This document shows, piece by piece, positions 14,912 to 25,661 of a stretch of 64,000 nucleotides of DNA. The DNA is from Candidatus Magasanikiibacteriota bacterium (GTDB lineage: Bacteria > Patescibacteriota > Patescibacteriia > Magasanikbacterales > UBA922), in assembly GCA_041665025.1 (NCBI GenBank), contig JBAYJP010000005.1, positions 11,056 through 75,055 on the forward strand, given 5' to 3'. The first letter of the stretch is position 1. The number at the start of each line of letters is the position of its first letter. A program made the position numbers and the translations under genes. Below the pieces are notes generated by a model that worked only from the letters and a program-made list of their open reading frames with translations, had not been told where the DNA came from and did no database searches.

Positions 14912-15742
14912 CTACTTCGCATTTACATCTGGCTGATGTATACCAAACGTATTTCCTTCAGTATCAATGAAATATCCTTGCCACGCCATGCCGGGAATTG
15001 CGTGCTTTGGCAGAGCAACAATACCTCCAGCTTTTTCTATTTTTTTAGCTGTTTCATCAAAGTCTCTGACAACTACGGTACAGACAAATGCGTTTGTTCC
15101 TTGTTGTGGGCCTGGGGCTGGAACAGGGCGTTGTAAAAGTCCTCCATCAATACCGTGAGATCCTGAACCCATCGGAGCAGTTACAATTCCCCAATATATA
15201 GGGTCGTCCATCAATTTCGGGAATTGCCATACAAATACATCGCCATAGAATTTCTTCGCGCGTTCTATGTCATCAGCTTGGATTTCAAAGTGTACGACGC
15301 GTTCAATTTTTTGATTTTTGTCGTAGCTTATCATCCAGTTGATGCCAAATTTATCTGTGCACATGCCAAAATATGATCCCCAAAATGCGTCTGCCATGGG
15401 CATGGTGTTTGTACCGCCTTCTGATAATTCTTGAAAGAATTTGTCTGCTTGTTCTCTGTTATCAGCTGTAACTGAAATAGAAATTGCATTACCGGTTCGT
15501 GATTTTTCTATTGATTCGGGCGTGTCACTTCCCATAAGAACACTATTGTTTCCAATAGGGAGCGCTACATGCATAATTTTCTCCCCTTCGTTTTCATTGA
15601 GTGACATGGCTTTTTGAGCTTCGGTCGGTGTATCTTTGAATCGTTGTATAAAGCCAAATTCATTGCCAAAGATTGATTTATAAAAGTTGAAGGCTTCTTC
15701 ACAGTTGTTGTCGAAGCTGAGATACGGGTTTAGTGCGGGCAT
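14912..15742 (-). CDS. VOC superfamily protein, tandem PhnB-like (3-demethylubiquinone-9 3-methyltransferase-domain) repeats
   Basis: N-terminal LNPYLSFDNNCEEAFNFYKSIFG and an internal repeat of the same fold. Confidence 0.55.
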   Translation of the reverse strand: MPALNPYLSFDNNCEEAFNFYKSIFGNEFGFIQRFKDTPTEAQKAMSLNENEGEKIMHVALPIGNNSVLMGSDTPESIEKSRTGNAISISVTADNREQADKFFQELSEGGTNTMPMADAFWGSYFGMCTDKFGINWMISYDKNQKIERVVHFEIQADDIERAKKFYGDVFVWQFPKLMDDPIYWGIVTAPMGSGSHGIDGGLLQRPVPAPGPQQGTNAFVCTVVVRDFDETAKKIEKAGGIVALPKHAIPGMAWQGYFIDTEGNTFGIHQPDVNAK

Positions 15743-15775: not shown

Positions 15776-17170
15776 TTATGTATGTACAGGCACTTGCTTG
15801 ACATCAAGTTTGTTCAATTTATAAGTGATCCAAAAATATCCTACTATCGCGGACACAATGTTTCCCGCAACAAGAGATAACCAGACAGAGATAATGGGAA
15901 AATTAAATACATATGTCAATATATACGCAAGCGGAATCGCAATAATGACAAACCGTAAGAATACGATCCAAAATCCAGGCCATGATCTGCCAATTGCTTG
16001 AAACGCGCTTGCCTCAACAAGCGATGCGGCCAAAAATCCATAGGTCAATGCGACAGTCCACATATAATATGTGGCATATTGTGTTACGATCGGGTCAGTG
16101 GTAAATATGCCAATGACAAAGCGGGCAAACAGTGCCACGATAATACCGAGTGCTGTTGCACTAACAGATGCATACAAAAGTCCTTGGCGAAAAGATTGTT
16201 GTGAGCGTTCTAGGTTGCCTGCGCCGATATTTTGTCCCATCATAGCCATAGCGCCAAATCCAAATCCAACTGCGGGCAAAAACGCAAAAAATTCTACTCT
16301 AAACCCCAGACTAAACGCGACCGCTCCGGCTTCAAAAAATTTGGATGAAGTGATGACTGTCAGAGCAGCTACTCCTATAGGATATATGACTTGTGTTATT
16401 GATGCGGGTATTCCGATATCAAGAACTTTTTTTACTGACTGCCATTTGAATGACAAATTCGAAAAATGAAATCGTATTTTTCGTTTTACATTAGACAGCG
16501 AACGTAATGCTATTACAATAAAAACTGCTTGAGAAATAAGTGTCGCTATGGCGGCTCCGGAAATGCCGAGAGCTGGAATTCCTAGCCAACCAAATATCAG
16601 AATGGGATCGAGAATTGAGTTCACCAGTGTTGAAACTGCAAATAGTTTTGTTAACGTGAATGTGTCTCCTTGCGCGTTGAATGCAAACATGATGGTTGTT
16701 AATATGAAAAATAATATGGAGCCCGCTGCAGTAATAGTGAGATATTGACGGGCTGGTTCAAAAATGAGTCCATACGCGCCTGAAGCAACCAGGAGTTGGT
16801 TTCTAAATACGAGTGCGATAATGGTAAAAATAATTCCTGCAATAGCTGCGAGTACAAATGACTGTCCCAGTACGCGCTCTGCTTCAGGTATATTTTTTGC
16901 TCCAATATGCATGGACATGATAACGCCCGACCCAACCGTAATGCCAAAACCAAAAGATATCATGAGAAACAATGCAATTTGAGAAATACTCACCGCGGCT
17001 ATTGCCTCTGCTGATAATTTACTTACCCAATATGCATCTACGAGATTGTAAAGCGTATAGAAAAATATTGAGAGCATCATGGGCCATGCAAGAGACCAAA
17101 GTTGTTTGCGAATAGGGCCAGTTGTGAGATCCTGTTCGTGCATTTCAATTGTGGTAGTTTGTTCGGCCAT
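15776..17170 (-). CDS. MATE family efflux transporter
   Basis: 464 aa, 12 predicted TM helices. N-terminal GPIRKQLWSLAWPMMLSIFFYTLYNLVDAYWVSKL is typical of NorM/MATE. Confidence 0.8.
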   Translation of the reverse strand: MAEQTTTIEMHEQDLTTGPIRKQLWSLAWPMMLSIFFYTLYNLVDAYWVSKLSAEAIAAVSISQIALFLMISFGFGITVGSGVIMSMHIGAKNIPEAERVLGQSFVLAAIAGIIFTIIALVFRNQLLVASGAYGLIFEPARQYLTITAAGSILFFILTTIMFAFNAQGDTFTLTKLFAVSTLVNSILDPILIFGWLGIPALGISGAAIATLISQAVFIVIALRSLSNVKRKIRFHFSNLSFKWQSVKKVLDIGIPASITQVIYPIGVAALTVITSSKFFEAGAVAFSLGFRVEFFAFLPAVGFGFGAMAMMGQNIGAGNLERSQQSFRQGLLYASVSATALGIIVALFARFVIGIFTTDPIVTQYATYYMWTVALTYGFLAASLVEASAFQAIGRSWPGFWIVFLRFVIIAIPLAYILTYVFNFPIISVWLSLVAGNIVSAIVGYFWITYKLNKLDVKQVPVHT

Positions 17171-17190: not shown

Positions 17191-17688
17191 TCATGTTTGT
17201 TTATATGCTTCTTGTAATTTTTTGATATCAATTTTTTTCATTTGGAGCATGGCTTGCATAACTCTGCCTGCTTTTTCTTTATCCTTATCTTGCAACATGT
17301 CGCCAAGAATAGTCGGGGTAACCTGCCATGATAGGCCGTACTTATCTTTGAGCCATCCACACTGCTCTGATTCTTTTACTGCGGAAAGTTTTTCCCAATA
17401 ATAATCTACCTCCTCTTGGTCTTTGCAAGCAATCATAAACGATACTGCCTCACTAAGTTTGAAAATGGGTCCGCCGTTTAGGGCAACGAATGTTTGTCCA
17501 TTTAGTTCAAATTCAACGGTTAAGACAGATCCTGCTGGTTGGCCAGAAACTTCAGCTGAGGATTCGTCATAATAGGAAATTTGTTTGATTTTTGATTGGT
17601 TATCTCGCGCAGAAAATATAGATACATAGAATGTGGCCGCTTCTTCTGCTTGGTTATGAAACCAGAGATGAGGAATTATGTTTTGCAT
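17191..17688 (-). CDS. VOC/PhnB-like protein
   Basis: IPHLWFHNQAEEAATFY...GQTFVALNGGP...CGWLKDKYGLSWQV. Confidence 0.6.
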   Translation of the reverse strand: MQNIIPHLWFHNQAEEAATFYVSIFSARDNQSKIKQISYYDESSAEVSGQPAGSVLTVEFELNGQTFVALNGGPIFKLSEAVSFMIACKDQEEVDYYWEKLSAVKESEQCGWLKDKYGLSWQVTPTILGDMLQDKDKEKAGRVMQAMLQMKKIDIKKLQEAYKQT

Positions 17689-19650: not shown

Positions 19651-22245
19651 TTAGTTTTTCGTCAACTGTGTCTGCCACAAATTTGGCGTATTATTTGCAT
19701 ACAGCGCTGTGGCAAACCATGCCCAGTTTTGTGTGTAATAGTTTTTGTCATCGCCCCACTTGCCATTGTGGAACATAGACCAAAAATGATCGCTATATAT
19801 ATCTATTGATTTTTCCGATTGAGAAATATCGAGCGCCGAAAGTGCTCCTGCGTATGTGCTAATGTCATCAAAATTTGCCACAGGGGTTCCGTCTATTTTG
19901 TATCGAGCCTCAATAACATGATCTCTGTCCCATTGTTTGATATAAAATTTTGACACTTGCTCAAGATATGCTTTAGCTTCTGTACTTTCAAACCATTTGG
20001 CATCAAGGGCGAGCCGCCACATGAGACGGAATGCATCGTAGCCATAAATATCGGCGTCTTTTTTTACATGCTCGGCGCTTTCGTAATCTCCCAAGCTCGT
20101 AAGCAAAAACCAATTGGGCACCAGTCCAGTATTATTTTTAAATGTAGGCGATTGCTTTAGTTGAGCTAGTATCACGTACACATCTTCGGCAAGCGCATCC
20201 CAGTTATGGTTTTTATCTATCTGAGCAAATATTTTGTATGATGCCGGAGAAAAATATGATGGATTGATAAGATAACCCGTCTTTGTGTCAGCGCCAGACG
20301 TGAGATAGAGTGTACCATCTACTTCGATAACTCGATTTTCCCAAATACTGTCGAGTATTTCACGGGCGCGTTCCATATATATAGGATCTCCCCACTGCTT
20401 GTAGGCAAACAAAAGTGCAAGTGCGATATCCTCGTCCGCGTCAGTTGCAGTAGAGTAATCCAAAATTGCCTCCGTGCCAGTCGTATTTTTTCCATAGAGC
20501 CACGCGTAGAGTTTGTTACCAGGTAATTTCATGTTATCTTCGGACCAGGAAAATACGCGATCAAATGTTTTTTTGTCTCCCTGCCATACGGCACGTAATA
20601 GTGAATATGATTGTCCCTCAGAGGTTGTAATATTATCTGCTTTAGGATCAATTGTCTTTCCATCTCGCGTAATAAATTCCTTTTTGTATACTTCCCAGCT
20701 TTTCTGGATCACACCATCTTTATTATTTACTTCGCGTATTTCGACCGGGTATCCTTCATCTAAAATATCATAATTATTAAATCGTTTGATAACATGTGAA
20801 TTTTCATATGCTGTCTGCACGAGCGGCAGGGTATCATTGTAGATATTTATGGTAAGTGCTGGAGTAAATAGGAGGTAATCTATACGTTTCCAATCATTAT
20901 TTAAAACAGCGTATTGAACTTGCGGATCAGTGTCTGCTTTCCAATAATAATGTATATTTGTCTTCTCAATATCTTTGAGATTGGGATTTAAATCGACAAA
21001 TGGGTAGTTGTCAATGAGTGTTACTGAACGGGGATTCAAATTATCTTTTACCCATCCAACTGCCTGCACTTGGTTGTACGTTTGGTCAAGAGAAAAAATA
21101 TACCATTTTTGAGAAAGTTCAAAGACGAGTATCAGTGAAATGATTGAAAGTATTCCGAAACGTATAGGCATAAGTGCCACCGGATCTTTTTTCTTCACCC
21201 TTTCTATCACCTGATCTGATAGTAATGCGATACTTATAGAGAAAAGGGCCATGAGCGGTATGATATACCAGTCGAGAACTTGTCCTCTCAGTATAAAGAG
21301 TGTATAGGATAGGCTCATGAGTGCGATCAAAAAAGACCATTTTTTTCTAAATAATAGTACATGTATTATGCTTGCACCGGCTCCTAAAAATAAAAAGAAC
21401 GGCGCGTATGGTAGCCATGTGGTTTGCAATGAGTAGAGAAACGTACTGGTTGATTGCCGATTGATATGAAATCCAAGTGCCTCCATAAGGCTGACGTGGG
21501 GCTGTGTTCCTCCAAGCACTGTACCGCTTGGAAAAAATTCTCCTTTGAGGAGTGCAAATACGGGGTACATTGATATGGCAAGTGAAGCAATGCTTATCCA
21601 TACGACAATGGCAAAATGTTTATTATTTTTGTGTGCTTGCAGTGCGATAATGGCACTCATGCCGACGATAAAAGGGGCTGCGGATTCTTTGGTAAGCACG
21701 GCCATGGCAAACATTATCGCGCTTGCAATGATATATTTAAGACGCATAGGCTTGGTCAGAAGATAGAGCGACCACAAGAACCAAAACATCATAATATTAT
21801 CCAAAAGCACTCTACGATGGAGCATAACAGATAGTGGCGTTATGCTAAATAAGATTGCGGCTATGGCAGAAGGAAATTTTCGTCTTGTTATATTCCATGT
21901 TATGTTATATACAAAATACGTTGAGAAAATCTGTAATATTGCCACAAACAGTCGACCGGTATTTGCCGTCAGACCGCCCATAAAAAAGTCATTCCCCGTA
22001 AAGAAATTCCACAAGGCAATAAAGATCCACCCAAGCGGTGCGTGATCATACCAATAGGTGTATGAGGCCAGTTCGTGTTGGTTTATTACCGCCCAGGCCT
22101 GAGACATATACGTGCCCTCGTCTTCTCGATATGAAGGAAATCCAAACATGTTGGTCATATGCACAAAAGCTGACGCAAGAAGTATTGCTAGGAGTATCCA
22201 ATGTTCTTTGAGCCAGTTTGATTGTGCAATTTGTTCTTTGACCAT
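19651..22245 (-). CDS. Fusion protein: N-terminal GT-C-fold membrane glycosyltransferase (PMT/ArnT-like) plus C-terminal glycoside hydrolase family 8
   Basis: 864 aa. About 11 TM helices with a DE motif in the first loop (FPSYREDEGTYMSQAW), as in GT39/GT83. The C-terminal part has the GH8 proton-donor block TTSEGQSYSLL and the GH8 signature ATDADEDIALALLFAYKQW. Confidence 0.7.
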   Translation of the reverse strand: MVKEQIAQSNWLKEHWILLAILLASAFVHMTNMFGFPSYREDEGTYMSQAWAVINQHELASYTYWYDHAPLGWIFIALWNFFTGNDFFMGGLTANTGRLFVAILQIFSTYFVYNITWNITRRKFPSAIAAILFSITPLSVMLHRRVLLDNIMMFWFLWSLYLLTKPMRLKYIIASAIMFAMAVLTKESAAPFIVGMSAIIALQAHKNNKHFAIVVWISIASLAISMYPVFALLKGEFFPSGTVLGGTQPHVSLMEALGFHINRQSTSTFLYSLQTTWLPYAPFFLFLGAGASIIHVLLFRKKWSFLIALMSLSYTLFILRGQVLDWYIIPLMALFSISIALLSDQVIERVKKKDPVALMPIRFGILSIISLILVFELSQKWYIFSLDQTYNQVQAVGWVKDNLNPRSVTLIDNYPFVDLNPNLKDIEKTNIHYYWKADTDPQVQYAVLNNDWKRIDYLLFTPALTINIYNDTLPLVQTAYENSHVIKRFNNYDILDEGYPVEIREVNNKDGVIQKSWEVYKKEFITRDGKTIDPKADNITTSEGQSYSLLRAVWQGDKKTFDRVFSWSEDNMKLPGNKLYAWLYGKNTTGTEAILDYSTATDADEDIALALLFAYKQWGDPIYMERAREILDSIWENRVIEVDGTLYLTSGADTKTGYLINPSYFSPASYKIFAQIDKNHNWDALAEDVYVILAQLKQSPTFKNNTGLVPNWFLLTSLGDYESAEHVKKDADIYGYDAFRLMWRLALDAKWFESTEAKAYLEQVSKFYIKQWDRDHVIEARYKIDGTPVANFDDISTYAGALSALDISQSEKSIDIYSDHFWSMFHNGKWGDDKNYYTQNWAWFATALYANNTPNLWQTQLTKN

Positions 22246-22266: not shown

Positions 22267-24390
22267 TTATATTGACGTCGGGCTGGTTCGTTGGACTGCA
22301 CGATGTGCATTCACATGCGCTGTCTTTTCCCATGTATTTTTATGTCGCATTTCTCTCACTACTGCGCGCAGAGAAGAATAGCCGAGAATTATCTGGTAAG
22401 GTAAAAATGTGATAAGTAATTTAAACATGATCCAGCGTGGGTATTTCAAATTATATTTTTTGGTGAACTCGTATAATCCAATATTGAGAACAATAAAATT
22501 TATCACGAGCATATACAGAGGCAGTATAGACAGCAAAGTAACAAGTATGGGAAGCTTTACGGTAAATATCATGACTATCGACGCAATAATATATATGAAT
22601 AGAAATGCCTGAATTTCGGGCCAGATAAGCATGTATGCCACAAAAAATCTTTGTGAGATAAGCGGCAGGTTTTTCCATTCCTTTTTTTTAAATACTTGCA
22701 AGAATCCTTGATTCCATCTGGTACGTTGTTTGATAAAACTGCCTAATGTTTCGGGCGTTTCTTCCTGGGTCGCGTGAATTTCATCATAAATAATTCTAAT
22801 TTTTGCTCCCGCTGCGCTCAATTTGATCCCGATATCCGCATCTTCAGTGAGGCAATTCGCATCCCATCCTTCAATTTTATGCAGCCATTCACGTTTGAAA
22901 AATACGGTGTTGCCTCCGAGAGGTATGACATGACGTAGAGCAAAGAAATGGAGCACTGATTTAAACCAGAAAAAATATTCAAGAACATTTAAGGTCGAAA
23001 ACCAATTGGATCGGAAATTGATGAGCTGTACTCCAGATTGCACGACATCCGCGTCATCTCGTATCATGACGGTGTTTATCACTTGATAAATATCTGCATG
23101 CGGAGAATCCTCGGCATCAAACACACACACAATGTCGTGATGTGCGTATTCAAGGGCAAAATTAAGTTTGTCTGGTTTGTTTTTTGGTACGTAGGTAGGT
23201 ACAAGTAGCTGGATATTAGTTTTACCAAGCTCTTTAATTTTATGTTGTACAGCCTCTATCGTTTCGTGGTCATCAGATCTACATACGATAATAATCTCTG
23301 TAAGGTGTTCAGGATATTCTATCTGTGCGATTGCCTGCATAGTTTCTGCAATAACATTTTTTTCATGTAAAGCAGGTACAATGGCAGTAAATGAATAGAG
23401 CGGCGCATAAAAACTTTTTGGCGACTGATTTTGTTCAACGCGTGCAGGGTCGTCCCATGCAAACATCATGCCGGTTAGGGTAAATATACTTTGGATTACA
23501 ATAGCGACTGAGAGAAGTAGAAACAGCAAAATAAGAATATTAGATATTGTTGCAATATTGGCTGTTACGAGGTATATAGAGATTGCGGACAAAAGTATTA
23601 TGATGCCGGAGACTATATACCAGGCAAAGGGACTAAATCCAAGATATATTCGTTTAAGCCGTATGCGCAGGGCGTTATATATGAATTCAGATATATCATG
23701 GAATGACATTTTTGATTTGCCACTTGTACGTTCTTCAAAATGAATAGGCACCTCGACAATACGCGCATGGTTGCGTACTAATTCATCAAGCAATCTTATT
23801 TGAAAAGAAAAACCGCGCGCAGGAATAAAATTGAGAAACACTTTTTCAAGTGCTTCTGATTTAATTGCCTTAAATCCGCTTGTGCAGTCGTGTATGGGGT
23901 AAAGCCCCGCAAACCACCTTGCAATCAAGTTCGCAATTTTGCTATTGAGCCAGCGCATTGTAGACCACTGTGGGGGCAGACTTCCACCTTTGATATATCG
24001 AGACCCGAGTGCCACATCTGCGCCGAGTTCGAGTACCTGTAGCATAGGGGGAATATATTGTGGATTGTGAGAGAAGTCCGAATCCATTTGAATAATGGTA
24101 TCTGCCTTAAGAGCATTGAGTGCATAATTAAATCCTCGCTTATACGCAATACCCAATCCTTGTTTGTCTCCTTCAATAAGATGAATATTTTTTCGGGTCT
24201 TTCCGTATTGTTTCACAAGGTATGCCGTACCATCGGGGGAGTGGTCGTCTACTACGACAATATGTGTATCATATTTTTCATGTGGTATTAGTATTGATTT
24301 TATTTTTTTCATTAGGTCCACAATATTCCCACGTTCATTGTACGTAGGGATAATTATCGCAATAGTTTGTTTTTGTCTTGAACCGGGCAT
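22267..24390 (-). CDS. Tandem family-2 glycosyltransferase: N-terminal DPM-synthase-like GT2, TM region, then a processive beta-glycan synthase-like GT2 (D, DxD, TED, QRTRW)
   Basis: Domain 1: IIIPTYNERGNI...VVVDDHSPDGT...DSDFSH. Domain 2: IVPALHEKN...VFDAEDSP...CLTEDADIG...KQRTRWNQG. TM helices lie between the domains and after the second one. Confidence 0.7.
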   Translation of the reverse strand: MPGSRQKQTIAIIIPTYNERGNIVDLMKKIKSILIPHEKYDTHIVVVDDHSPDGTAYLVKQYGKTRKNIHLIEGDKQGLGIAYKRGFNYALNALKADTIIQMDSDFSHNPQYIPPMLQVLELGADVALGSRYIKGGSLPPQWSTMRWLNSKIANLIARWFAGLYPIHDCTSGFKAIKSEALEKVFLNFIPARGFSFQIRLLDELVRNHARIVEVPIHFEERTSGKSKMSFHDISEFIYNALRIRLKRIYLGFSPFAWYIVSGIIILLSAISIYLVTANIATISNILILLFLLLSVAIVIQSIFTLTGMMFAWDDPARVEQNQSPKSFYAPLYSFTAIVPALHEKNVIAETMQAIAQIEYPEHLTEIIIVCRSDDHETIEAVQHKIKELGKTNIQLLVPTYVPKNKPDKLNFALEYAHHDIVCVFDAEDSPHADIYQVINTVMIRDDADVVQSGVQLINFRSNWFSTLNVLEYFFWFKSVLHFFALRHVIPLGGNTVFFKREWLHKIEGWDANCLTEDADIGIKLSAAGAKIRIIYDEIHATQEETPETLGSFIKQRTRWNQGFLQVFKKKEWKNLPLISQRFFVAYMLIWPEIQAFLFIYIIASIVMIFTVKLPILVTLLSILPLYMLVINFIVLNIGLYEFTKKYNLKYPRWIMFKLLITFLPYQIILGYSSLRAVVREMRHKNTWEKTAHVNAHRAVQRTSPTSI

Positions 24391-24602
24391 ATAAGATACT
24401 GGATGATATATATCATACTAAATAAGTATGCTTTATATTCAGCATACTGCCTGCTCCTGCTCGTGTCAAATATTTTTTGCTTAATTTTATACAAACTTGT
24501 CCACAGAATTCACAATTTATACACAGTTAGTATGAATTTAAACTTGACATCAAATTTTTAGTTTATATTATACTAATATTAATAGGCCAGTTCACACGGC
24601 CG

Positions 24603-25661
24603 ATGCGAGGTAGAGACATGGTGTGGAGGGTGATACTTTCCACTATCATAGGAAAAGAAGAGGCCTCACAGTACGAAGTACTGAAAGTCTCTAATTCAGG
24701 GGTTAGTGGAACATGCGTAGTAATCGTCGCGGATCGTAGAACCGGCAAGCGGTATGCGGTCAAGTACGGTGAAAGTAAGGTTCCACTGACAGAACAGGCA
24801 CAAAACACCCGTCGGATGGCTGAGCTATTCGAGGATGTCAGAATACCTCGAATAGTTCTCTGCAGTCCTCAGCTCCTCATGATGGATGCTGTGGAAGGAG
24901 AGACATTGCAGGAAACAGTCGTGAAGGGGATTTACCCAGCTACGAGCCTCATAAAAATTTTTGAGGCAATACTTCGTGCATTTACGGCCGTGTGGAAAAA
25001 GACAGCACAGCCGTATGATGCGGGTGTGGAGCTCCGTCGTGACCCCAAAGGAAGAATTGAGCGTATATGCAGTAGCTTGTGTGAACACGTTTGTGTAGAC
25101 TTGTCTCTTTGTTCATTCAGGGAGACACCACTGTATGTCAATGGTGTACGCTGTGGTGAACTTGGAACAATGTTTCAGGAACTGACCACTGGCTACAAGC
25201 CTCCTCGCAACATAGTCGAATGTCATGGAGATCCAAATGCCGACAACATCATGATCGACAGCCACAAAGATTGGTGGCTTATCGACATGGAGTGGGCTGG
25301 CTTGCATGATTGGAGAATCATGATGAGCCAGCTCATAGGTTGGTGGATCTCGAATGCTACGTACCTCACGAATGGCACGCCTACATGTAGAGTCCGCAAT
25401 AATCGAATTGAGCTTGACTACCGCATCTCTATGCATCCCGTGGCACAGATGCTCATGGAGATAGCGTGGAGATATGCGGCAGAAGTGGCTCAATCTTTGG
25501 GTGAAGTTGACTGGGAAAGACAAATCCAGTATCAGCTCGGAACCCTCTTGCTGAGCCATGTACGGTTTGCGGAGCAAAGAAACCGCTCCGAATACCGTCT
25601 TGTTTTGCTCGGCGAGGCATTCAAGTTCCTCAACAGGGACGCCTGCCTTAGCCGGCCATAG
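24603..25661 (+). CDS. Aminoglycoside-phosphotransferase (APH)/protein-kinase-like fold phosphotransferase, moderately GC-elevated
   Basis: Catalytic loop ECHGDPNADNIMID (Brenner HGDxxxxN) and the DFG-equivalent WWLIDMEWAG. Judged by eye, about 50% GC against about 40% for the neighbours. Confidence 0.55.
   Translation: MRGRDMVWRVILSTIIGKEEASQYEVLKVSNSGVSGTCVVIVADRRTGKRYAVKYGESKVPLTEQAQNTRRMAELFEDVRIPRIVLCSPQLLMMDAVEGETLQETVVKGIYPATSLIKIFEAILRAFTAVWKKTAQPYDAGVELRRDPKGRIERICSSLCEHVCVDLSLCSFRETPLYVNGVRCGELGTMFQELTTGYKPPRNIVECHGDPNADNIMIDSHKDWWLIDMEWAGLHDWRIMMSQLIGWWISNATYLTNGTPTCRVRNNRIELDYRISMHPVAQMLMEIAWRYAAEVAQSLGEVDWERQIQYQLGTLLLSHVRFAEQRNRSEYRLVLLGEAFKFLNRDACLSRP

Follow-up and report, generated by a model that had tools for sequence, protein, structure and literature searches.

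Glycoside hydrolase family 8 (GH8) is an inverting family (CAZy). Hydrolases dedicated to a polysaccharide synthase are found in several Gram-positive systems, including clostridial CcsA/CcsZ with a GH5 enzyme, Streptomyces CslA-GlxA-CslZ and Listeria Pss with the GH8-like PssZ; to our knowledge none of these has been described with a GT-C partner or a fused lipid-sugar synthase. Cellulose-type synthases raise two old questions: what they require a 'cellulase' for, and whether sugars linked to a lipid are ever involved. BcsZ and CelC2 have roles in trimming and length control (PMC5407803; PMC3520766). Three-component extracytoplasmic glycosylation systems, in which a lipid-linked sugar is transferred at the outer face of the membrane, are described in general terms in PMC13390465.

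The protein considered here is the 864-aa product of an ORF at 19651-22245 on the minus strand of the window, the whole 64-kb stretch of DNA that was analysed. It contains a GT-C domain followed by a small outer domain and then a GH8 domain. The gene directly upstream encodes a 707-aa fusion of a polyprenyl-phosphate-hexose synthase and a processive BcsA-like GT2 synthase. We propose, with a probability of roughly 0.6, that the 864-aa protein serves, on the outer face of the membrane, as the subunit there of a conserved beta-glycan pathway that depends on a synthase and combines four activities. The features of the locus are as follows, in the direction of transcription.

24441..24469, minus strand: promoter-like site (TTGACA-17-TATGCT) upstream of the first gene, 10 of 12 matches in a consensus scan; weak, as such sites in the region do not exceed the shuffled expectation
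23659..24375, minus strand: polyprenyl-phosphate hexose synthase domain (DPMS/GtrB/ArnC-like GT2), aa 6-244 of the 707-aa protein, Pfam Glycos_transf_2
22267..23532, minus strand: processive membrane GT2 synthase domain with a minimal cellulose-synthase-like fold, aa 287-707 plus stop codon
21091..22245, minus strand: GT-C transmembrane glycosyltransferase domain, aa 1-385, modelled with 11 helices and a cytoplasmic N-terminus, with the invariant D42-E43 in outer loop 1
20716..21090, minus strand: outer alpha/beta domain, aa 386-510, after the last transmembrane helix (pLDDT, 'mid' HMM)
19651..20715, minus strand: GH8 (alpha/alpha)6 glycoside hydrolase domain, predicted extracytoplasmic, aa 511-864 plus stop codon
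17829..19601, minus strand: GH113 glycoside hydrolase with an N-terminal signal or anchor and extra C-terminal domains, which follows as the third gene after a gap of 49 nt

The N-terminal domain has a polytopic GT-C fold of the PMT/ArnT-like branch. Its closest fold matches are protein O-mannosyltransferases, which makes a protein acceptor an alternative. Outer loop 1 opens with an acidic pair, D42-E43, that is invariant in 40 aligned fusions; among 36 relatives that lack the GH8, drawn from several phyla with Actinomycetota among them, E43 never varies and the conservation of D42 is at least 90%. We looked for an unrelated membrane anchor devoid of the GT-C Asp/Glu residues and found this conserved pair instead, so the preliminary description was right to call the domain a true GT-C. 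Twelve residues (D42, E43, D67, H68, R98, R144, D149, N150, K186, E187, E236 and R263) are invariant or nearly so across several phyla at 27-72% pairwise identity. The best PDB sequence match to the N-terminal 510 aa is TM6SF1 at E 0.036, a chance match. Searching the PDB with a full-family profile gave no GT-C match, and a broadened profile gave just Pmt1, weakly, at E 0.17. Since the PDB sequence searches of aa 1-510 gave nothing useful, the assignment rests on Pfam and the fold. A classical PMT (GT39) was rejected, with no MIR domain found by Pfam and Pmt1 reached at E 0.17 only. The GT-C probably takes a lipid-phosphate sugar as its donor and modifies the emerging polymer; what links it to a polyprenyl-phosphate donor is gene linkage or fusion to the DPMS/GtrB-like enzyme.

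The outer alpha/beta domain is modelled with a pLDDT of about 82-96 over most of aa 386-510 and is also present in relatives that have no GH8. The 'mid' HMM matches nearly all GT-C homologues in the loci, whether fused or unfused, the exceptions being two fragmentary or low-scoring ORFs. The GT-C and outer domain together (aa 1-510) are also found as complete stand-alone genes of 500-550 aa. Helix borders were taken from the structure model. With its eleven helices there are eight lysines and arginines in 26 cytoplasmic loop residues versus six in 124 outer loop residues, in agreement with the positive-inside rule. On these two grounds loop 1 of the GT-C and the GH8 domain are predicted to share the outer side of the membrane, the arrangement that the preliminary description had assumed.

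The C-terminal domain matches PF01270 at 154.8 bits, for a curated cut-off of 24, and all 40 aligned homologues match this family. Together with the GT-C fold and the 40 fusion homologues, this bears out the earlier reading of the protein as a GT-C fused to a GH8. The domain has the (alpha/alpha)6 barrel fold. E543, D602 and D737 align with E95, D152 and D278 of CelA, within the motifs SEG, DADEDIA and YDAxR, so that the GH8 catalytic acid Glu, the DxDxD Asp and the base Asp at the GH8a position (CelA D278) are all present. E543 is kept in 39 homologues and D602 in all 40; D737 is kept in 34, the remaining six having Asn. The profile is closest to endo-beta-1,4-glucanases, among them the cellulose-synthase partners BcsZ and CMCax. 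A BcsZ orthologue was rejected at 131.7 bits versus an equivalog cut-off of 299 (NCBIfam NF008305). In role, the domain would thus be a BcsZ-like partner of a polymer synthase with no claim to BcsZ orthology, and by analogy it probably trims the glycan in the way that BcsZ does. Some relatives have no GH8, or have a NagZ-like GH3, a retaining enzyme, instead of it; a NagZ-type GH3 or a LysM domain occurs in place of, or besides, the GH8 in some. No single hydrolase chemistry is essential, because relatives swap the GH8 for a retaining GH3 or lose it. Public records name such proteins just 'glycosyl hydrolase family 8', and the GT-C half and the surrounding system have therefore been overlooked.

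The upstream fusion is context that the preliminary description lacked. Its DPMS-like domain matches the Pyrococcus furiosus Dol-P-Man synthase 5mlz at 2.7e-31 by sequence and at 1.8e-17 by Foldseek, with 33% identity; ArnC and GtrB also match. The synthase domain matches the Pfam families Glyco_tranf_2_3 (139.7 bits) and Glyco_trans_2_3 (89.5 bits), and BcsA at 1.5e-10 by sequence. Foldseek matches it to BcsA, PcManGT (TM 0.75, target-normalised) and hyaluronan synthases. The motifs NKPxxLN, DAED, LTEDAD and QRTRW are conserved, and the best NCBIfam match, which is below threshold, is PgaC/IcaA. The presence of this fusion suggests that the GH8 would act as a BcsZ-like synthase partner and that the GT-C would serve a lipid-sugar glycosylation system as its arm on the outer face. 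The DPMS-synthase fusion would also be compatible with a lipid-primer mechanism instead of decoration.

The GH113 protein scores 156.8 bits in Pfam, and the beta-1,4-mannanases 4cd6 and 3civ match it at about 2e-21. A GH113 lies beside the cluster in three other loci (L007, L008 and L061), and its position suggests that it belongs to the system. GH113, GH44, GH5 and extra GH8 genes are beta-glycanases found recurrently beside the cluster. Pfam results for the three operon proteins, and precomputed ones for the neighbouring genes in related loci, contain no BcsB or PilZ. A search of the 64-kb window for GtrA-like ORFs gave none at E<=1, so the flipping step has no gene to account for it here.

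Relatives are found in at least 597 species-representative genomes, and the module is especially common in Patescibacteria. Linkage was counted in 80 species-representative loci, which include 72 GT-C genes with enough upstream DNA. An orthologous synthase lies directly upstream of 63 of these 72 genes, in at least four phyla, and seven more have a synthase elsewhere in the locus, three of the seven being second copies of tandem duplicates. The first six lineages examined all have the orthologous synthase directly upstream on the same strand (6/6). The coding regions of GT-C and synthase often overlap, and the two proteins may form a physical complex.

The same activities occur in different states of fusion. 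GH8 and GT-C usually form one protein in Patescibacteria and Chloroflexota; cultured Actinomycetota encode the four activities in separate genes that lie side by side. A DPMS-synthase fusion followed by a GT-C-GH8 fusion is the arrangement in Patescibacteria. Chloroflexota (L050 and L080) have a separate DPMS, then the synthase, then GT-C-GH8. The gene order is synthase, GT-C, GH8, DPMS in Frigoribacterium and Microbacterium and DPMS, synthase, GT-C, GH8 in Nocardioides. Arthrobacter (L078) has synthase, GT-C and a DPMS fused to a GtrA-type TM domain, and Streptomyces has synthase, GT-C and DPMS. One protein (P0382) is a triple fusion of DPMS, GtrA and synthase. Many relatives also fuse the DPMS to the synthase; in many other lineages the DPMS is separate or missing from the locus. 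The GT-C and synthase pair outlasts loss of the GH8: in L009 and L010 a complete 512-aa GT-C (P0124) overlaps the gene for a 703-aa DPMS-synthase, with no GH8. In L002 and L005, unassigned proteins of 523-532 aa follow a paralogous dual-GT2 gene and have only a marginal likeness to the GT-C (E 0.03 and 0.17).

In the proposed pathway the C-terminal half of the upstream protein would use a nucleotide sugar to make a beta-linked glycan and thread it through the membrane. Its N-terminal half would load a hexose onto polyprenyl phosphate, as DPMS, GtrB and ArnC do. The lipid-sugar would then be flipped, and on the outside the GT-C would transfer the sugar either to the polymer as it emerges or to the point where the polymer is anchored. 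The GH8 domain, kept at the exit site by the fusion, would hydrolyse the backbone by an inverting mechanism, and may trim, release or length-control the chains, as is expected from BcsZ or CelC in cellulose systems. The backbone is most likely a cellulose-like beta-1,4-glucan, with a mannose- or GlcNAc-containing backbone as alternatives. The hints as to the sugar conflict: the PgaC/IcaA match, the NagZ-type GH3 and LysM point to GlcNAc, GH113 points to mannan and other hints point to glucan.

A different use of the same enzymes is lipid-primed synthesis, in which the Pren-P-hexose from the DPMS would prime the fused synthase, the chain would come out on the outer side still attached to its lipid, and the GT-C, as a ligase, would move the whole chain or GH8-cut blocks to a wall acceptor or to another chain. 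WaaL-type ligases and oligosaccharyltransferases transfer whole lipid-linked glycans with GT-C-like folds, so such a step has precedents. In the window, and in many relatives too, one polypeptide carries both the lipid-sugar synthase and the processive synthase, for which an in-cis hand-off of substrate is a natural reason, and the linkage of the four activities across phyla also fits, as does the resemblance to the lipid-intermediate model for Agrobacterium CelA/CelC/CelDE (PMC3520766). The lineages with a separate or missing DPMS count against this, and the GtrA-type TM domain on the DPMS of P0382 and L078 suggests that a monosaccharide-lipid is flipped. Moreover, the monophosphate-donor GT-C enzymes known to us (PMT, ArnT, ALG, Emb, GtrC and YfhO) transfer single sugars, and we know of no solved BcsA-type synthase that requires a primer. 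We regard lipid priming as unlikely, and the fuller claim that the cluster is a working system for lipid-primed beta-glucan synthesis, complete with the GT-C transfer of lipid-linked chains or GH8-cut blocks, as a little less likely again. If true, this would be the first demonstration of a GT-C that has a monophosphate-linked polymer as its donor, and the old lipid-intermediate and endoglucanase model of cellulose synthesis would be vindicated in another lineage.

The GT-C may instead be independent of the synthase. Mycobacterial MptA/MptB build mannan from Pren-P-Man and Pmt mannosylates secreted proteins; the GT-C could likewise act on the outer face as a second polymerase, or O-glycosylate proteins, with the GH8 as a tethered digestive or remodelling glycanase. 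The fold matches to protein O-mannosyltransferases, the weak profile alignment to Pmt1 and the Dol-P-Man synthase as top match of the DPMS domain all favour this, and a glucan homopolymer of Lactobacillus johnsonii depends on GtrA/GtrB-type genes (PMC7117936). However, it leaves without explanation both the synthase directly upstream of the GT-C in most loci and the fusion of the DPMS to the synthase, not to the GT-C, and the protein lacks the MIR domain that GT39 PMTs have. This independence seems to us distinctly improbable.

We think it very unlikely that the GT-C is a non-catalytic anchor or structural partner of the synthase, in a role like that of BcsB or PgaD, with the GH8 as the sole relevant enzyme. 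The system is without BcsB or another known co-subunit, and the close and often overlapping arrangement of GT-C and synthase suggests a stoichiometric complex; but the twelve conserved residues are ones typical of GT-C catalysis, and the linkage to a lipid-sugar synthase would have no explanation. Least credible of all is the suggestion in the preliminary description that the GH8 is a transglycosylase, with cleavage and transfer by the GT-C as one coupled reaction: the family is inverting, hydrolase-type residues, the acid and base among them, are kept at the CelA positions (E543, D602 and D737), and relatives keep GT-C and synthase with the GH8 separate, missing or replaced by a NagZ-like GH3. 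The functional coupling of GT-C and glycanase that the same description envisaged is supported by the recurrent fusion and the split-gene version in Actinomycetota.

A literature search, which covered few subscription-journal papers, found no description of a GT-C-GH8 fusion or of this cluster. A GT-C-GH8 next to a cellulose-synthase-like gene points to an undescribed route by which several bacterial phyla make and trim a polysaccharide of the cell surface. On the preferred reading, that of a four-activity pathway, the module is compact and widespread, made up of a GT-C, a glycanase and two synthases, one a processive GT2 and the other for a lipid-phosphate sugar, and it unites two textbook routes that are usually kept apart, synthase-dependent secretion and three-component outer-face glycosylation. 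It physically joins all the suspects in the question of the cellulase and the lipid-linked sugar. Almost nothing is known of the cell envelopes of Patescibacteria, which are rich in the module; Frigoribacterium, Microbacterium, Nocardioides and Arthrobacter are cultured and have the split version, which would make the question accessible to genetics.

The locus resembles the Agrobacterium CelABCDE lipid-intermediate model (PMC3520766), of which plant KORRIGAN is an analogue, in that a single pathway brings together a GT2 of cellulose-synthase type, a lipid-linked sugar and a GH8 'cellulase'. Unlike that model, which was itself never established biochemically, the system here includes a GT-C, and the link comes from the genes alone. 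The Actinoplanes 'gsf' GtrA cluster (PMC13390465) was rejected as a counterpart; it has other genes and no GT-C.

Like GtrB/GtrA/GtrC, CsbB/GtcA/YfhO, ArnC/ArnEF/ArnT and Ppm1/Pmt, the system has a DPMS/GtrB/ArnC-like GT2 and a GT-C with an acidic motif in loop 1, and in relatives a GtrA-type TM domain is adjacent or fused (fused in P0382 and in Arthrobacter L078). In contrast to these three-component systems, the lipid-sugar and GT-C pair is joined to a processive synthase and a glycoside hydrolase, with no flippase gene found in the window.

Like BcsA with BcsZ, CelC or CMCax, the locus has a processive GT2 (TED, QxxRW and a BcsA-like fold) beside a predicted extracytoplasmic GH8 with its acid and base. 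Unlike the Bcs cellulose system, it has no BcsB, PilZ or c-di-GMP module among the three operon proteins, and its synthase, of about 420 aa, is a minimal form. Its GH8 scores less than the BcsZ cut-off and is covalently joined to a GT-C, and the system includes a synthase for a lipid-phosphate sugar.

The 864-residue reading frame with an ATG start at 19651-22245 on the reverse strand stands exactly as given in the preliminary description, and so does its pairing of a GT-C glycosyltransferase with a GH8 glycanase on one chain: Pfam finds PMT at residues 94-214 (33 bits, cut-off 22.7) and Glyco_hydro_8 at residues 514-773 (154.8 bits), and the fusion recurs in homologues. NCBI holds an identical protein from a Candidatus Magasanikbacteria MAG, labelled 'glycosyl hydrolase family 8'. 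There are at least 492 homologues; the 120 listed have 806-931 residues, 36-72% identity and, in nearly all, at least 95% query coverage, and their named sources are mostly Patescibacteria (Woesebacteria, Roizmanbacteria, Shapirobacteria, Saccharimonadales). These homologues show the fusion to be a real and conserved one. Its surroundings are as follows.

19651-22245 (-): GT-C-GH8 fusion gene
21 bases upstream of it, same strand: 707-residue protein with two GT2 domains
49 bases downstream of it: secreted GH113, nearest solved relatives beta-1,4-mannanases
14912-15742 (-) and 17191-17688 (-): two genes of glyoxalase/3-demethylubiquinone-9 3-methyltransferase fold (PF06983/PF00903)
15776-17170: MATE efflux gene between these two, just downstream of the GH113 gene
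24603-25661 (+): kinase-like gene (APH/TCAD9, sub-threshold), divergent from the operon

Upstream of the trio lies a promoter-like site, and no convincing terminator was seen between the three genes; the two glyoxalase-fold genes appear unrelated to the glycan module. The N-terminal domain of the 707-residue protein is nearest to Pyrococcus furiosus dolichyl-phosphate mannose synthase, both by sequence (2.7e-31) and by Foldseek (1.8e-17, 33% identity), and is likewise matched by ArnC and GtrB (DPMS-like). The C-terminal domain is nearest to BcsA, the minimal cellulose-synthase-like PcManGT and hyaluronan synthases, and the protein contains the processive-synthase motifs DAED, LTEDAD and QRTRW.

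The structure model of the fusion protein has 11 membrane helices, and with the N-terminus inside there are 8 Lys and Arg among the 26 residues of the short cytoplasmic loops versus 6 among the 124 of the outer loops. This predicts an outer location for loop 1, the remaining conserved loops, the alpha/beta domain at residues 386-510 and GH8, which agrees with the proposed location of GH8 on the same side as GT-C loop 1. Residues P37, D42, E43, G44, Y46, Y62-H68, R98, R144, D149, N150, K186, E187, E236 and R263 are invariant in 40 of 40 aligned fusions, and in 36 relatives without GH8, Actinomycetota among them, most are still invariant or show conservation of at least 90%. The catalytic acid of GT-C enzymes lies just after the first helix, and D42-E43 directly follows helix 1, so the alternative of an unrelated membrane anchor is not borne out. 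R98 and R144xxLLD149 align with R138 and R184-YILLD189 of yeast Pmt1, at an E-value of only 0.17 with a broadened profile. A MIR domain is absent from the fusion protein, and we therefore do not call it a classical GT39 PMT.

When GH8 is aligned with CelA, E543, D602 and D737 match the acid, conserved Asp and base of that enzyme, and they are kept in 39, 40 and 34 of the 40 fusions respectively. In six members Asn replaces D737, the presumed catalytic base (window about 20035-20037); their GH8 may lack activity or rely on a different base. Closest to the GH8 family profile are CelA (1.5e-54) and then BcsZ/CMCax-type endoglucanases (1e-45 to 1e-35); the matches to chitosanases and xylanases are much weaker (1e-23 or worse). 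The GH8 misses the NCBIfam BcsZ equivalog threshold (131.7 bits versus 299).

In six further lineages inspected individually the gene immediately upstream is the orthologous synthase (6/6), often overlapping, and either alone (420-475 residues) or with a DPMS-like domain attached. Relatives were scanned in one genome per GTDB species, giving at least 597 positive genomes, and per-domain HMMs were built and run on the best 80 loci. GT-C is fused to GH8 in 51 of these 80, and the synthase lies directly upstream of 63 of the 72 GT-C genes that have 1.4 kb or more of DNA upstream of them; for seven it is elsewhere in the locus (three being second copies of tandem duplicates), and two lack a same-strand synthase. 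The pair is also kept without GH8, the protein P0124 being a complete 512-residue GT-C whose gene overlaps a DPMS-synthase gene. The fusion state varies with phylum, and the states together link all four activities.

Gene order and fusion state (brackets enclose one gene; hyphen or plus, fused; syn, synthase; GTC, GT-C; L numbers, loci)
Patescibacteria: [DPMS-syn][GTC-GH8] or [syn][GTC-GH8]
Chloroflexota (L050, L080): [DPMS][syn][GTC-GH8]
Frigoribacterium, Microbacterium: [syn][GTC][GH8][DPMS]
Nocardioides: [DPMS][syn][GTC][GH8]
Arthrobacter (L078): [syn][GTC][DPMS+GtrA-TM]
Streptomyces, Streptacidiphilus, Actinoplanes: [syn][GTC][DPMS]

The homologue P0382 is a single chain of DPMS, GtrA transmembrane domain and synthase.

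Several loci have further features. Tandem GT-C-GH8 duplicates follow a single synthase gene at L026:3317-8637, L032:2909-8583 and L046:5872-11995, the second copy in L046 being a GT-C without GH8. A paralogous dual-GT2 gene (DPMS-like plus divergent synthase, 736-750 residues) lies upstream of the main pair at L002:1636-5453, L005:335-4239 and L019:603-2900; the next gene in L002 and L005 encodes a membrane protein of 523-532 residues without a Pfam match, only marginally GT-C-like (E 0.03-0.17), and this pair may be a second synthase/GT-C-like module that is more divergent. DPMS-synthase homologues P0370, P0371, P0372, P0374, P0375, P0379 and P0381 (about 902-906 residues) carry an N-terminal FHA domain, and in L002 the gene right after the fusion encodes a Ser/Thr protein kinase (L002:9647-10639); together with the kinase-like gene of the window these hint at control by phosphorylation. 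In Arthrobacter oryzae the second gene upstream of the synthase-GT-C-DPMS cluster (L078:1146-3695) encodes a galactose-oxidase-like protein with Kelch repeats and a GO-like E-set domain, reminiscent of Streptomyces GlxA. The records of several MAGs with close homologues of CPR type bear the title 'uncultured Gammaproteobacteria', 'Pseudomonadales' or 'Bdellovibrionales' (L018, L021, L025, L029, L031, L033, L036, L037, L039, L040, L044, L053, L075); judged by sequence relationships, these titles look doubtful.

The hydrolase partner varies. Among the best 150 cluster representatives of the GT-C module, 67 have GH8, 58 are apparently stand-alone, and in six a NagZ-like GH3 of a single domain takes the place of GH8; the GH3 has the motifs KHFPGxLGRxxxDPH and SDDL (ISDDL). 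GT-C-GH3 occurs at L053:5953-8598, L073:5986-8409 and L011:6001-9894 (P0232), all three with the orthologous synthase gene still upstream, and in P0198, P0205, P0233, P0182 and P0241; these lineages may have a GlcNAc-containing polymer or acceptor. In P0191, a GT-C-GH8 variant of 1164 residues, an extra LysM domain at the C-terminus suggests that the protein is attached to peptidoglycan or a GlcNAc-containing glycan. Genes for GH5, GH44, GH113 and extra GH8 recur beside the cluster. GH8 is an inverting family (CAZy), and because the hydrolase residues are kept and the partner is variable (retaining GH3, a separate gene, or absent), the transglycosylation first suggested for GH8 is unlikely.

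The most economical reading is a synthase-dependent pathway with the fusion protein as its outer-face subunit. The analysis shows what the domains are, that their catalytic motifs are intact, that the topology is predicted to be same-side and that the genes are linked; the complex, donor, acceptor and sugar are inferred. The synthase would extrude a beta-linked backbone, the DPMS-like enzyme would load a hexose onto polyprenyl phosphate, GT-C would use this lipid-sugar on the outer face, where the emerging polymer is its most probable acceptor, and the tethered GH8 would cut the backbone, as BcsZ and CelC act on cellulose (PMC5407803; PMC3520766). The DPMS-synthase fusion suggests a serious rival, a lipid-primer/ligase scheme. 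It resembles a model for Agrobacterium that was never proven, where lipid-glucose is extended by CelA and oligomers are handed on by CelC, a GH8 (PMC3520766). Because the catalytic residues are invariant and the gene is linked to the synthase, it is a weaker explanation that GT-C is a mannan polymerase working independently, a protein O-mannosyltransferase or a structural component only. For the polymer the clues diverge: a beta-1,4-glucan is suggested by GH8, GH5 and GH44, a mannan by GH113, and GlcNAc by NagZ-type GH3, LysM and a PgaC-like NCBIfam match of the synthase.

Each part of the module is of a kind already known; new are the combination of four activities, the fusion of GT-C to GH8 and its sibling with GH3, and the joining of a lipid-sugar synthase and a cellulose-synthase-like enzyme in one chain. 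We found no description of the combination, of GT-C-hydrolase fusions or of the lipid-sugar-synthase fusion in full-text literature, mostly of non-subscription journals, and an earlier report is possible. The module is widespread, and in Patescibacteria it bears on a cell envelope about which very little is known. Cultured Actinomycetota carry it in split form, which opens an old question to testing: why a 'cellulase' is retained alongside cellulose-type synthases, and whether lipid-linked sugars are involved.
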